Shown: positions 429 through 52,608, numbered from the stretch's first letter. The stretch: 64,000 bases of DNA from Eledone cirrhosa (GCA_964016885.1 OZ024740.1:174530001-174594000); one strand, 5' to 3'. Numbers and translations: made by a program. The notes: generated by a model not told the origin, from the sequence alone.

Positions 429-933
429 ATATATAATCAAAGTTTAGCAAATGAGAAAAAGTTTTAAAATAAATTTAAAAAAATTCACTGTACTTGCTGT
501 AGTTACCTTTACCGTACGGTTTCGAGTCTTTGCGTGTTGGGATATATACTTTATTATTATTAATCACCCCCTGGTCGAGATAACATTTGGTCGTTTTGAC
601 TGCTGCTATTTATAGTAATAGTAGATTGACCTTTCCGCCTCTGCCTTCTATCTTTGCACACGGCACTGGACAGAATTGCTTCCACATCATTCATTCTCAT
701 CTCGGGAACAATTTGGAATAGCGCCAGTTCGTAATTCGAACTCGGGAATTTTATATTCTCCGAGTGAAAAGAACCTTCTGGCGAGAGTCTTTCTTTTCAA
801 TGAAGGCCCGTAAGGGCTATCCATTTATTTTTGAGACTCGAAACCGTACGGTAAAGGTAACCATAGCAGGTACAGTGAATTTTTTCAAATTTATTTTAAA
901 ACTTTTTCTTATTTGCTAAACCTTGATTATATA
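429..933. mobile_element. Foldback element (~100-bp inverted arms 429-529 / 834-933), likely a truncated Penelope-like pLTR inversion
   Basis: Arms are near-perfect reverse complements (ataatcaaagtttagcaaat...ccgtacggtttcgagtct / agactcgaaaccgtacgg...tttgctaaaccttgattat). TA-rich flanks. Contains an HHR motif. Confidence 0.7.
773..858 (+). ncRNA. Hammerhead ribozyme motif, one core substitution (CUGGCGA)
   Basis: ACCUU-CUGGCGA-GAGUCU...AGACUC-GAAA-CCGUACGG-UA-AAGGU. Stems I, II and palindromic III all pair. The A6G change is probably inactivating. Confidence 0.7.
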
Positions 934-1780
934 TATATATAGATTTACATATACATAAACTAGACAGAGCCATAGATATATATATATGTGTGTTTGGGGC
1001 AACCATTCACGGTGTGACTCAATGACGAATTAATTAATTAAATAATCAACAGTCAGAGCAATATACAAGAAAGTACGTCCATAGAATCATTTGATAAAAT
1101 ATATACAGTATTTCCTCTCCCAATAAGCATAATCAACCACACAAAAAATCAATTAAACAAGGCTATAAGATTAAAAGGCACCTATGAAGAAACAATAGAT
1201 AAATAAACGATAGCTATTATATTCGCGATCAACAGCCACAGAATATTTACCCAGTATTTCTAATAGCCCGTGGAAATCGATTAGATAAATAGCCAATCCA
1301 TTCACAATTAGGTACAAAATCAAAGTTAGAAGAAAAAATGTATATAAGCATACCAAAATTATGTCTCTACCCCATGAGATTTCATTCGCTTTTTGGAAAT
1401 ATCCGATCAAGGATAAATTCACGAGTTTCGAAATCATCAGGAAACAAACTCAATTGGACAAAGATTTTTCTTAAATGATCTTAAAATCTCACCGCCCCAC
1501 ATAATGACGTATTATCTTCTTCGATTTTTCCGTTCATTGCCAGAGAACGTCTCCACGAACCACCTAATAGAATATTAGTCTACGACTTCATTTATACCTT
1601 AAACGTGGTTTTGTCTTTGCGTGTATTTGTTTTCATCACTCCAAATAATGACGTATTATCTTCGTTTTTTCCGTCTTTACCTGGGAACGTTTCCACGAAC
1701 CAAAGTATCGTCTTCCTGTCTTCCTTCGGTTGTAACGTTTTTCGAAATATTTACTTCTGCGTTCACAGATTGATTTTTTT

Positions 1781-1831
1781 AGTTTCAGGAGATCCCGTTA
1801 AGGGTGAAAGCAGCGATTCTTTGCTTAAACT
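1781..1831 (+). ncRNA. Degenerate hammerhead remnant (second copy at 11504-11554)
   Basis: AGUUU-CAGGAGA-UCCCGUUAAGGGU-GAAA-GCA..UGC-UU-AAACU. The other copy has core UAGAAGA, so the implied ancestral core is CUGAAGA. Confidence 0.45.
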
Positions 1832-2439
1832 TTAATCTGTTATTTTAATAAATATATATATATATCGTATATATATATATATATATATATAATATATATA
1901 TATATATATATATATATATATATATATATATATATATATATATATATATATATATATATATATATATATACACGCACACATATATATATACACACATATA
2001 TATATTTCGTATATATATATATATATAGATATATATAGATAGATATATATATATATATATATATATATATATATATTTCTCTCTCTCTCTCTCTCTCTAT
2101 ATATATATATATATATATATATATATATATATACGAAAAGTAAACGAAAACAACAAAACAAACAATACAGTACTATGAAGAAATATATTAGTTTAACTCT
2201 TGATACAGTAGGAAAAGATTCTTAACGTTTCGGACACCAGTCCTGCATCTGAAGATAGAGTAGGAAATAAAAGAAGAAATAGAAATATAGATAGTGAGAA
2301 GAGGAAGGAACGGAAAAATGTTTTGGAGGAAAAGCTCTCTCCAAAATATGATCTTTCCGTTCCTTCTAGTTTTTACGCATATATATATATATAACTGGGG
2401 GCTGGGGGGATTCTAAGAACGCAGCGTTGCAGGATGATT

Positions 2440-2755
2440 GGGAAGCTCGCTTCGCAATCATTTGGTCCGGGTTATATCCCACTGTGTGGCATCTTCGGCA
2501 GGTGGCATTTACCATAGCTTCGACTCGACCCAAGCCTTCTGAATGGAAATGGCTAGGTGGAAATCTGTTGAAAGCCCGTCGGATGTAGTATAATTCCACC
2601 ATTTTCGCACACTATCACATGCTGGATCTCTCAGAGAATTACGTTAAGTGTACACGTGTCTGTGAAATGCTCAAACACTAACACGTTAAATCTATGAGCA
2701 AACTTTTCTGCTGATCGAACTACTGGAACACTCATCGTCGAAACCCAGAGGAGTT
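2440..2755 (+). mobile_element. Old SINE-like interspersed repeat (related copies ~47770-48080, 54500-54840, 55135-55685)
   Basis: Shared block gaattacgttaagtgtacacgtgtctgtgaaatgctca...tcatcgtcgaaac. The 55135 copy has a tRNA-like head. Confidence 0.5.
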
Positions 2756-3750
2756 CATCCTAGTCTGAGTGGGAATGGGCAACACTCATGGCGCTTTTCG
2801 GAGTTTTTGAGATGGTAAGATCGTAGACCTGACTCCAATGTTTGCAGTATAGCGGTCTCCACTAACACATGGCACAGGCCAAGGGATCATCGTAAGTACA
2901 GCTGCAAAATTCACCCAGTGCCCTTACGATGTTGATATATCACGTTAAAAACATGTAGGATGGGGTTTCTCGTTTGAGAACTGGTGACTTCATTGTAAAG
3001 TATTAGCATATCTTGCCATTAAGGCTAGGGAATTCAGCAGACATTTCAATATTAGCCAAATGTCTGTCCCATTTGAATTGAAAAATCTTGGAAAAGGTTT
3101 AAATGTGCCCTAAAAAACCTATCTGTGTGTAAAACATGAAAAACAGTATGTTGATTTTTGTAAGGGCTTGCATACACGACAACCCCTGATGTCTATCATG
3201 GACAGAACTGTTACTTACGATGAGTGGTGGATTCTTATCACAATATTAAGCGCCATTATCAATTGCTTATACACGTTTCTGGTATATTTCTGAACACACA
3301 AGCCAAAACCGTTTGGCGCTGCATTGGGGATTTATATATCTCTATACCCACTCTACATCTTCCCATGCATTGAATACTCTCATGATTAGTGGTTTCCCCG
3401 GTCTCAACACCGCAGACTCTCTCACTCTCTCTCTCTCTCTCTCTCTCTCTCTCTCTATATATATATATATATATATATATATATATATATATATATATAT
3501 ATATATATATATATATATATATATATATATATATATATATATAAAATTAATTTAATTAAATTAAATTAACGGCTCCTTAATTGTAGAGCTTATTCAGTTG
3601 AAAGGACCTTGCTGCTATTTATAGCTGTTATCACCCTATTCACGCCAATGTGGTGACGCTAGCATGTTGTTAGTAGTTTTAGAAATGCAACACGTGCGAT
3701 GGCTCACTCGCAGATTTGCATTAGATGTGTAAGCACAGATCGTTAAATCT

Positions 3751-3998
3751 TAAATAGCTCTGTTCTATTCATAGAGCACTCTTTTTTCCTTTGTTTTTTC
3801 TTCGGAATTACCTAACACACACACACACACACACACACACACACACACACACACACACACACACACACATATATATATATATATATAATTATATATATGT
3901 GTGTGTGTGTGTGTGTGTGTGTGTGTGTGTGTGTTAGGAAATTCCGAAGAAAAAGCAAGGAAAAATGAGTTCTCTATGTATAGAACAGAGCTATTTAA
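3751..3998. repeat. Inverted repeat around a (CA)n-(TA)n-(GT)n centre
   Basis: taaatagctctgttctattcatagagcactc...cggaattacctaac mirrored by gttaggaaattccg...gagttctctatgtatagaacagagctattta. Confidence 0.7.
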
Positions 3999-50933: not shown

Positions 50934-50976
50934 ACGTTGCTGACGATAGCTAATAAGCTTGAAACTAGTACAGCGT
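50934..50976 (+). ncRNA. Minimal 43-nt HHR (right arm)
   Basis: ACGUUG-CUGACGA-UAGCUAAUAAGCUU-GAAA-CUAG-UA-CAGCGU. Confidence 0.8.
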
Positions 50977-51710
50977 TCCTTTGTCAGTGTTGAACAAATG
51001 AGCAACGATGGTTGCTAGACACTGTACGGCTTAATTCGGGATGTTTGTTTACAAACACACCGAGCATTATAATAAATGTTTGGTGAATCCATACGTACAT
51101 ATATATATATATACATACTACTGTACGTCTGTATACATATATGTATGTACGTATACATACTTATATTTAAGTAACAGCCGTACTAAGAGTGAGAAATGAA
51201 ATTTCGTTTCATTTTTCCGTTTTTATATATATATATATATATATATATATATATATATATATATATATATATATATATATATATATATATGTGTGTGTGT
51301 ATATATATATGTATATGTATATATATATATATTTGTATATATATATGTATATATATATATATATATATATATATATATATGTATATATATATATATATAT
51401 ATATATATGTATATATATATATATGTATGTATATATATATATATATATATATATATATATATATATATATATATATATATATATATATATATATGTGTGT
51501 ATATATATATATATATATGTGTGTATATATATATATATATATGTGTGTATATATATATATATATATATATATGTGTGTATATATATATATATATATGTGT
51601 ATATATATATATATATATATATATATGTGTGTGTGTATATATATATATATATATATATATATATATATATATATATATATATATATACATTCACATAATC
51701 GAAATATATG

Positions 51711-51780
51711 TTTTATTATATATATTTCGAAGGTACTATGGTACTGTGCTGTTTTTTCAGTACGTTCTCGTCAGATAAAA
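51711..51780 (-). ncRNA. HHR (left arm)
   Basis: Exact mirror of 51896-51965. Confidence 0.8.
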
Positions 51781-51895
51781 TACATGAATTGATGTATGAC
51801 ATACCTCAACGGTCTTGATGGTTCAATTCCAGTATTGCCAATACTTGAATTGAACCATCAAGACCGTTGAGGTATGTCATACATCAATTCATGTA

Positions 51896-51965
51896 TTTTA
51901 TCTGACGAGAACGTACTGAAAAAACAGCACAGTACCATAGTACCTTCGAAATATATATAATAAAA
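51896..51965 (+). ncRNA. HHR (right arm)
   Basis: UUUUAU-CUGACGA-GAACGUACU...AGUACCUUC-GAAA-UAUAUA-UA-AUAAAA. Confidence 0.8.
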
Positions 51966-52295
51966 CATATATTTCGATTATGTGAATGTCTTCATTTATT
52001 AATATTCTGAATAATATTAATAACTTCAGAAAACTTCCTTGTAGAGTGCTTTTAATCTATTGTAAAACTATATTCATTGAGTAATCAATGAACCATATTA
52101 ATCTTTGGTCATATATATATATATATATATATATATATATATAAACTTAAGGAATTATGTGTCCTTTGTTTGTATTTTTTTTATTGTTTTAAACAATTTT
52201 TTTTAAAGGTTTCCCCTTAAAAGATTGTTTTTCGTTTGTTGTCTTGTCCGCTCTTTGTTATTTTCCTTAAGTATATATATATATATATATATATA

Positions 52296-52608
52296 TAAGT
52301 AGAAGTTGTATTTAATTTGTTGGAAGTCCAACAAACATAAATGTTTATAACTGATTTAGAACACTCAACAAGTTACTGGAGTAAATATTCAATGATATTA
52401 AATAAATGGAAACTATATTTATAAAACCATATTTATTTTATTATATATATTTCAAGGGCAACCAAGAGAACATGTCTTGGTCGCCCTTAAAACAAACTTT
52501 GCATTTTATCTGATGAAAGCGTACCAATGTTGCCTTGGTTGCCCTTGAAATATATATATAAAATAAATATGGTTTTATAAATATAGTTTCCATTTATTTA
52601 ATATCATT
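52296..52608. mobile_element. Family E-related foldback (arms ~52390-52465 / 52536-52608) with a degenerate HHR at 52503-52564 (+)
   Basis: Shares aataaatggaaactatatttataaaaccatatttattt and the tail with the 34551 element. CUGAUGA at 52510, GAAA at 52547. Confidence 0.75.

Follow-up and report, generated by a model that had tools for sequence, protein, structure and literature searches.

Head-to-head hammerhead copies at (TA)n repeats of Eledone cirrhosa as probable products of Hydra-type Penelope-like elements and retrozyme-like units

Introduction

A 64,000 nt stretch of the Eledone cirrhosa genome (OZ024740.1:174530001-174594000, from an assembly of 3.0 Gb), hereafter the window, contains numerous hammerhead-bearing elements at (TA)n microsatellites, many of them built as two inverted arms, and raises the question of what these foldbacks are and how both arms came to occupy one insertion site. 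The origin of tandem and inverted structures in Penelope-like elements (PLEs) is described as open (PMC8557442) and is partly answered in vitro. We consider it probable that the elements are 5'-truncated Hydra-type PLEs, together with insertions of non-coding tandem units, and that the foldbacks result from cutting of both (TA)n strands and from two rounds of copying of one RNA, each beginning at a different one of two fixed internal starts. Families were labelled after window positions as A (429), B (8127), C (12075, 19768), D (17911, 19399, 33414), E (34551, 52296), F (35029), G (44575), H (50402), I (51687), J (13874, 44982), K (1781, 11502) and O (2098 and others); L plus a number (e.g. 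L069) denotes an individual genome locus compared with these families.

Foldbacks and hammerheads in the window

Inverted arms were located by self-BLAST of the window with masking, since TA runs swamped a plain repeat search. Every foldback named in a first-pass annotation of the window was recovered in this way, and the named elements are indeed head-to-head inverted arms between TA runs, with hammerheads or their 3' halves pointing outward and stem III palindromes UAUAUA, CUAG, CGCGCG and CCGUACGG. Flanking (TA)n holds in general, although not for the element at 33414, whose tailed side has (GATA)n; likewise, the tail is one-sided as proposed, but measures 52-165 nt rather than ~50-120 bp. 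Two starts were corrected, from 429 to ~328 and from 8127 to ~8042, the tails being on the left, and what had been taken for a short spacer between the arms is merely the 5' extension of the longer arm.

Using a strict descriptor of the type I hammerhead, we obtained five matches in the window and none in any of 200 block-wise dinucleotide shuffles of it. A relaxed descriptor that also permits U3:A8, a U.U first pair and a long loop II found 11 matches with an intact core (shuffle mean 0.1, maximum 1; 30 shuffles), nine within foldback arms and two in solo copies. Stem I and II sequences vary among families, with pairing kept in each. These 11, having an intact core and all stems, compare with the ~20 ribozyme-like motifs claimed earlier; by eye the number rises to ~35, the remaining roughly two dozen being 3' halves or decayed copies, and includes a family, O, that had gone unnoticed (Table 1). 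The evidence for the motifs is thus the descriptor and its shuffles and not folding energy, as the single-strand z scores of eight hammerhead stretches ranged only from -2.8 to +0.7. An Rfam scan of the window showed no hammerhead among the 150 of 349 matches listed, all of which were low-complexity microRNA-type noise.

Parent elements of seven families

Judged by protein motifs, families C, D, E, F, G, I and K are the 3' ends of Hydra-type PLEs: long copies of all seven extend into open reading frames (ORFs) with reverse transcriptase (RT) and GIY-YIG domains, as the Penelope-like reading of the first-pass annotation would have it. The family F search returned 2,733 genome candidates, in which the inverted copies ended at one fixed point and one copy continued from the tail into the start of the RT. 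In the window, the GIY-YIG frame at 9213-9785 gave a weak Pfam match (E 0.0013) and 59,249 first-look genome candidates, 150 of which were scored, at 96-100% identity. A whole family F element was found in L069, where an inverted tail-less copy, a tail, an 894-aa frame, a 3' untranslated region (UTR) of 1.1 kb, a hammerhead, a tail and (TA)n follow one another. The frame is intact, with RWK, DKT, YRDD, a CNCRNPESC linker and, C-terminally, a GIY-YIG domain, and the whole protein had no match in Pfam; a second long frame, of 893 aa, is present in L070. Of the 30 loci L039-L068, 29 have the hammerhead end 1.0-1.3 kb behind the nuclease, that is all those listed (L041 was not among them).

An arrangement of pseudo-long terminal repeat (pLTR), ORF and pLTR was also seen for C (L291) and E (L293), with near-complete frames, and the RT-GIY-YIG ORF is tied to E in L294 and L296 as well. 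For D, G, I and K the link rests on tblastn matches to broken or partial copies: the nuclease lies 1.0-1.4 kb upstream of the end for G (L297, L298), D (L302, L344, L017) and I (L345), and in K the tail runs into the ORF start (L301, L344), and in all five long copies checked the nuclease sits ~0.93 kb upstream, with no TA break in between. Motifs were read for F (RWK and DKT) and for C and E (RWR and DKT); the CxCX5C linker is present in F, C, E and K, and CxxC and CxH around a conserved E and N in F, C and K. The element thus runs from hammerhead and tail through the RT-GIY-YIG ORF and a 3' UTR of 1-2.7 kb to a second hammerhead and tail, with unit lengths, from pLTR spacing, of ~4.1 kb (F), 4.3 kb (E) and 4.8 kb (C), i.e. 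not below 3 kb. The pLTR hammerheads passed the descriptor in 24 of 25 (C), 30 of 30 (E), 21 of 30 (F) and 22 of 25 (I) loci, and those of D, G and K fold, mostly with non-consensus cores. The only named relatives of the retroelement protein are from Argonauta hians and Octopus bimaculoides (two of 43 matches).

To place the window in its genome we used 40 evenly spaced 10-kb stretches (400 kb). Of 69 ends in this sample, 40 are TA-flanked, and 24 of the other 29 are units inside one H array. The earlier statement that the elements are mostly foldbacks describes real structures in the window but does not extend to the genome, since the sample has nine short-centred foldbacks and 27 solo ends, in a tally from which centres above 400 nt would escape and the 24 array units were excluded.

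Three further observations concern these elements. Tails of B, C, D, E, G, I and K share a GAGTGCT/GAGTAC-type motif (seven of nine families checked, not the F reference or H), a candidate enzyme-binding signal. The L069 frame holds two low-complexity G/R/P/N-rich inserts at about residues 470-720, in the thumb and linker, which keep the frame and resemble the N-rich inserts of rotifer Penelopes. Finally, a 774-aa Penelope-like frame at 7562-9883 of L298 has a DKG motif and a longer cysteine linker and is Neptune/Poseidon-like, by which non-Hydra PLEs with long frames are also present in the genome.

Two fixed 3' ends

In each family tested, 3' ends fall at two fixed points downstream of the hammerhead, and copies can accordingly be sorted as tailed or tail-less. 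The second end lies upstream of the final one by 95-100 nt in F, 80-85 in E, 65-70 in C, 75 in D, 100 in G and A, 50-55 in H and ~165 in J; K also has two peaks. When all loci compared were considered, 138 of 142 distinct TA-flanked foldbacks paired one tailed with one tail-less arm, three having two tails and one none. The same pairing was found in all nine foldbacks of the evenly spaced sample and in all three K pairs; random pairing at the end frequencies of the sample would, by hand arithmetic, give ~47%.

Retrozyme-like families A, H and J

Families A, H and J are head-to-tail units of ~485, ~427 and 591 nt, respectively, each with a type I hammerhead. Units of A were seen in L168, L169, L173, L183 and L185; H forms arrays of 23 units and a partial one in L300 and of 24 in L343, with 15 passing the descriptor. 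In tblastn with four PLE proteins the units gave no match below E 0.1, and their longest ATG frames are 46, 100 and 75 aa. They match the description of non-LTR retrozymes (PMC7229834; bioRxiv 10.64898/2026.07.22.740005) and, on sequence grounds, are termed retrozyme-like here, so the Penelope-like reading of the families stands for the seven above and not for these three.

Dispersed copies of A, H and J have two fixed 3' ends, TA junctions and tailed/tail-less foldbacks, as in the Hydra-linked families. Because they share both ends and junctions with PLE families they are likely trans-mobilized by a PLE enzyme, and they likely ride on the same enzymes as the Hydra-type families; if true, this signature on non-coding retrozymes would be direct evidence that PLE enzymes move them. 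It is rather unlikely, although worth keeping in view, that another PLE clade (Neptune- or Naiad-type) moved them instead, or that they spread as satellite after a single insertion. The Neptune/Poseidon-like frame in L298 and the listing for Octopus of Naiads that prefer (TA)n fit the former, the long H arrays in L300 and L343 resemble locally amplified satellite, and the units have no sequence match to autonomous ends. Nevertheless, the shared ends, TA junctions and paired foldbacks mean that some PLE enzyme inserted at least some copies, and all seven ORF-linked families are Hydra-type.

Formation of the foldbacks

In the route we favour, the GIY-YIG domain would nick both strands of the (TA)n site, and at the start points a few TA bases of the target would anneal to the RNA. 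Of the two starts, the upstream one would usually be used first and copied further 5', the downstream one would add the tail to the other arm, and at self-complementary stretches the two like-sense cDNA ends would be joined. Acting as a dimer formed by way of its palindromic stem III, the hammerhead would process the precursor RNA, but its cleavage is likely not needed for insertion.

The 5' reach of the arms was compared in 132 of the 138 tailed/tail-less foldbacks, six being excluded as one arm extended <35 nt past the first start. In unselected loci, those that a family's own query had not picked, the tail-less arm reaches further in 16, the tailed arm in two and neither in 24 (p = 0.0013); for foldbacks of the window these numbers are three, one and none. 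Additionally, the RNA shares 3-7 TA bases with the target at 10 of the 14 start sites read (background for ≥3, 8.7%), the median identity of arms is higher within than between loci in seven of seven families, and foldback centres cluster at element hairpins or near-palindromes, often inside the ribozyme.

An inverted arm could also arise by self-priming, as proposed for rotifer Penelopes (PMC3846280): cDNA or antisense RNA of the same elements would fold back at a palindrome, the tail being lost from one arm at resolution. The position of the centres, the equal reach of the arms in 57 of 132 scored foldbacks and their greater likeness within loci all agree with this proposal. However, when a tailed cDNA snaps back, its tailed arm has to come out longer and a longer tail-less arm is forbidden, yet the latter is found in 34 of 75 unequal foldbacks overall and in 16 of 18 from unselected loci. 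Nor can a cDNA that lacks the tail supply the template for one; some tailed arms, moreover, hold the tail alone (19471-19548, 11372-11431). Self-priming alone therefore fails to explain the set of foldbacks and is disfavoured as the sole route, and we think it unlikely overall; the excess of longer tail-less arms in unselected loci argues instead for priming from both target strands.

Several points weigh against twin priming by Hydra-type enzymes. Loci picked by a family's own query, a choice biased toward long tailed arms, have the tailed arm longer in 38, the tail-less in 15 and neither in 33, such that both orders occur; four of the 14 start sites share just 1-2 TA bases; and snap-back would account just as well for the perfect palindromes with arms of equal length (57 of 132). 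High arm identity within a locus could stem from later conversion, and the order of priming is read from end products. For an anole PLE in vitro, no strand difference in start site was reported, and synthesis started at a site not homologous to the target (PMC11167929). Furthermore, no ORF link was found for B across 25 loci and L347, nor for O and the fragments at 11855 and 13361, for which three no genome search was made, and the units of A, H and J show no clear match to the autonomous ends compared.

That the foldbacks are instead terminal inverted repeat (TIR) DNA transposons (miniature inverted-repeat transposable elements, MITEs) with TA target duplications and chance hammerhead-like motifs, the alternative named in the first-pass annotation, can be discarded with near certainty despite the inverted arms and TA flanks, given that most copies are one-armed (27 solo versus nine foldbacks in the sample), 3' ends are fixed while inner breakpoints and centres vary, the tail is on one arm only and the long parent copies encode RT and GIY-YIG and no transposase. 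Such stumps are readily misfiled as MITEs or short interspersed elements (SINEs) during annotation.

Ribozyme cores and predicted activity

Most copies of A, C, E, F and H have a consensus core, and nine of nine J copies the U3:A8 core. Family K has A at position 4 (U4A) in 100 of the 100 genome matches listed and, as its long copies are 97-98% identical, has spread recently with this core. Family G is mostly U4C, often with A6U, and in D a C3 stands opposite A8 in six of eight copies. Work by Lunse et al. (2016) on PLE hammerhead variants may already include some of these cores. The family-wide U4A of K and the predominant U4C of G are not among the variants described for minimal hammerheads in the relevant passages of PMC4209133. 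Changes in the core usually cut hammerhead activity sharply, with viroid U4C staying viable (PMC3088659). When foldbacks were folded whole, the predicted long hairpin removed stem I and paired the core completely in four of four. Most genomic foldback ribozymes are therefore likely inert by this folding model, which is consistent with cleavage being dispensable in vitro (PMC11167929). A U.U pair at the base of stem II was also considered as a novelty and rejected, as it is common in the listed Hydra hammerheads and tolerated (PMC3088659).

Genome-wide abundance

In the 400-kb sample the strict descriptor found 11 matches and none in each of five shuffles, and the relaxed one 44 (15 in one H array, ~3 doubtful) compared with 1-3 in four shuffles; a one-mismatch descriptor was too noisy (47 matches versus 2-11). 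By hand, 11 per 400 kb extrapolates to ~82,000 strict hammerheads per genome (Poisson range 41,000-147,000), and the window, with five per 64 kb, is ~3 times denser than the sample. Exact whole-genome counts were 44,757 for an intact-core UAUAUA hammerhead pattern (control 2), whose variable gap can tally one site twice, as seen once among 100 listed, and 17,764 for the family K pattern (control 0). The two patterns together exceed 62,000, against published minimal hammerhead numbers of ~2,000-9,000 per genome (PMC4209133), and near the 126,247 of axolotl (PMC7229834) in a genome ~1/9 the size. Thus, the large number of motifs proposed for this genome is borne out by counts and sample, whilst the term 'ribozyme load' overstates function, in view of the core buried by the predicted hairpin and several non-consensus cores. 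Hammerhead families absent from the window were met in L307, L309, L310, L313, L326, L328, L330, L332, L335, L338 and L339, with stem III palindromes CCGG, TGCA, CCATGG, TACGTA, TGCGCA, CGGCCG and GTAC among them and several U3:A8 cores.

Relation to known systems

Hydra-clade PLEs are diagnosed by RWK in place of GxKF/Y, DKT in place of DKG, a CxCX5C linker, the absence of CCHH, and CxxC and CxH flanking the conserved E and N (PMC8557442), and for Hydra-1_Obim of Octopus bimaculoides a (TA)n target and a hammerhead are listed (Craig et al., 2021, PMC8557442). Our elements resemble this clade (Hydra-1_Obim, Penelope-13_HM) in RWK/RWR, DKT, CxCX5C, a C-terminal GIY-YIG domain without CCHH, (TA)n insertion, a 3' hammerhead in which U.U is frequent at the base of stem II, and a 5'-truncated inverted copy. 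In contrast to the few families of <3 kb described there as a general tendency, at least seven families with units of 4.1-4.8 kb occur here, in tens of thousands of copies with intact young ones, their tails are 65-105 nt rather than 30-40, and their hammerhead sequences differ from that of Hydra-1_Obim (PMC8557442). With minimal hammerheads (PMC4209133) they share type I topology, a short stem I, a palindromic stem III, many families per genome and the U3:A8 variant; the 2,000-9,000 per genome counted elsewhere are here exceeded by two exact patterns alone. Opposite-strand hammerhead pairs 100-700 bp apart had already been noted (Cervera, 2014). The earlier annotation was right in observing the architecture and the PLE association, but both are in print (Cervera, 2014; Craig, 2021).

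The closest experimental parallel is PAc, a Poseidon element of Anolis, whose enzyme cuts and extends both strands in vitro, uses two internal RT starts delimiting the tail and does not need the hammerhead to cleave for insertion (Frangieh et al., 2024, PMC11167929). The two starts and an AT-rich target are common to both; PAc, however, has no strand bias or target homology, whereas here each foldback combines the two kinds of start, most starts have a short TA match to the target, and the starts lie upstream of the ORF start (C, E, F and K, where both were seen) and not inside the ORF (PMC11167929). Like non-LTR retrozymes, for which mobilization by PLEs has been proposed, families A, H and J consist of tandem units that code for no protein and have a single type I hammerhead apiece (PMC7229834; bioRxiv 10.64898/2026.07.22.740005). 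Beyond this likeness, they show the two-start tail of PLEs, insertion junctions at (TA)n and foldbacks, which are a footprint of mechanism, as opposed to co-occurrence or sequence kinship. Cephalopods are not covered in the retrozyme passages of either source.

Searches for literature on PLE twin priming and inverted copies at microsatellites returned no relevant paper, and those on cephalopod hammerheads with Penelope or retrotransposons, and on the Hydra clade since 2021, only Craig (2021). The words 'ribozyme' and 'Hydra' do not occur in the main text of a 2026 O. vulgaris repeat paper, the curated library of which may hold these families. The feature is of a known kind; its worth lies in its scale, in one start per strand, in the same signature on non-coding units and in a young, abundant family with a non-consensus core. 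What seems new is the two fixed 3' ends per family, the tailed/tail-less pairing, the longer tail-less arms, the retrozyme-like units sharing this signature and the U4A family of at least 17,764 copies. More tentatively, and slightly short of what we would call probable, the whole may represent the largest Hydra-type PLE expansion yet seen, with foldbacks as an in vivo record of asymmetric twin priming (a different start site per strand), retrozymes bearing the same signature and a U4A family of ~18,000 that either spread as a fold without catalysis or is a candidate active variant. With tens of thousands of natural products, near-identical young copies and intact enzymes, it becomes testable whether twin priming is the rule, whether retrozymes and PLEs are partners and whether the hammerhead has to cleave.

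Features of the window

The hammerhead-related features are collected in Table 1. The young C copy at 19601-19895 has at least 19 genome matches at top score, itself included, with 100% identity over 201 nt.

Table 1. Hammerhead-related insertions in the window
Positions	Strand	Feature	Details
328-927		Family A foldback, retrozyme-like	Tailed arm 328-527 (-), hammerhead 3' half; longer tail-less arm 530-927 (+), full hammerhead 778-853, A6G in this copy
1487-1852	+	Family K solo tail-less 3' end, Hydra-type PLE	Hammerhead 1781-1831, family-wide U4A core
2098-2270	-	Family O decayed hammerhead copy	Relatives 4158-4307 (-), 19229-19383 (+), 27162-27307 (-), 37201-37277 (+)
7932-8017	+	Family D tail-only insertion	
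8042-8360		Family B foldback, old	~80% identity among copies; tailed arm 8042-8292 (-), full but mutated hammerhead; tail-less arm 8293-8360 (+)
8381-11258	+	Family F long copy, 5'-truncated, frameshifted, tail-less end	RT-thumb remains; GIY-YIG frame 9213-9785; SINE-like insert in 3' UTR ~10220-10411; hammerhead ~11146-11205
11305-11431		Family D mini-foldback	Tail-less arm with 3' half; tail-only arm 11372-11431
11502-11577	+	Family K short tail-less copy	
11812-12048	+	Decayed hammerhead-like fragment, unlinked	3' half 11914-11927
12076-12345		Family C old foldback	Tail-less arm 12079-12138 (-); tailed arm 12224-12345 (+); cores decayed in both
13320-13630	-	Solo copy, full but decayed hammerhead, unlinked	3' half 13361-13377
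13874-14288	+	Family J tailed solo copy, retrozyme-like 591-nt unit	'Family D' of the first-pass annotation; hammerhead 13962-14041, U3:A8 core
17911-18081		Family D foldback	Tailed arm 17911-18041 (-); tail-less arm 18047-18081 (+); hammerhead 3' halves only
19399-19548		Family D foldback	Tail-less arm 19399-19457 (-); tail-only arm 19471-19548 (+)
19601-19895	+	Family C young tailed solo copy	Intact hammerhead 19768-19806; second C-type end facing, 19910-20014 (-)
33414-33577		D-related foldback	Tailed arm on -; target (GATA)n
34552-34950		Family E foldback	Tail-less arm 34552-34730 (-), hammerhead 34608-34648; tailed arm 34732-34950 (+), hammerhead 34764-34812
35031-35546		Family F foldback	Tail-less arm 35031-35255 (-), hammerhead 35089-35133; tailed arm 35259-35546 (+), hammerhead 35348-35392
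44575-44945		Family G foldback	Tailed arm 44575-44805 (-); tail-less arm 44805-44945 (+); long loop II, non-consensus core
44982-45982	-	Family J partial dimer, tail-less	Period 591 nt; hammerheads 45059-45136, 45650-45727; joined to ~20-nt tail-end arm 45962-45982 (+)
49093-49243	+	Family B solo decayed copy	
50408-51220		Family H foldback, retrozyme-like, ~427-nt unit	Tail-less arm 50408-50783 (-), hammerhead 50625-50655; tailed arm 50867-51220 (+), hammerhead 50940-50970
51688-52110		Family I foldback	Tail-less arm 51688-51836 (-), hammerhead 51717-51774; tailed arm 51840-52110 (+), hammerhead 51902-51959
52298-52609		E-related foldback	Tailed arm 52303-52457 (-), 3' half only; longer tail-less arm 52499-52609 (+), core at 52510

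A related pair at 12959-13050 and 2-80 has an intact CUGACGA and stem II, with stem III unclear at 13013-13040. Other repeats of the window include an inverted repeat of 288 bp at 25110-25829 (98% identity, 145-bp centre), a different kind of foldback with no TA flanks and no full hammerhead, and short inverted pairs around microsatellites or unique centres, also without hammerheads (3750-3998, 20029-20167, 20303-20508). Members of a ~550-nt family start at (TA)n and end near (TACA)n (37890-38441, 46115-46566, 49745-50325), and the descriptors found no hammerhead in them. A 442-aa frame at 6055-7383 (-), with a C-terminal restriction-like nuclease and an end at (TAA)n, is presumably the end of a Dong/R4-type long interspersed element (LINE). 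A broken L1/Tx1-type LINE with apurinic/apyrimidinic endonuclease and RT frames occupies 27470-31222 (-), and a second fragment of 77-82% identity lies in the opposite orientation at 62892-64000 (+). Lastly, a ~190-nt SINE-like repeat, which we take to resemble an octopus SINE, is abundant and often in inverted or tandem pairs (7318-7509, 10220-10411, 22951-23443, 43570-44044, 48503-48888, 55427-55640, 58235-58417 and 59911-60299).

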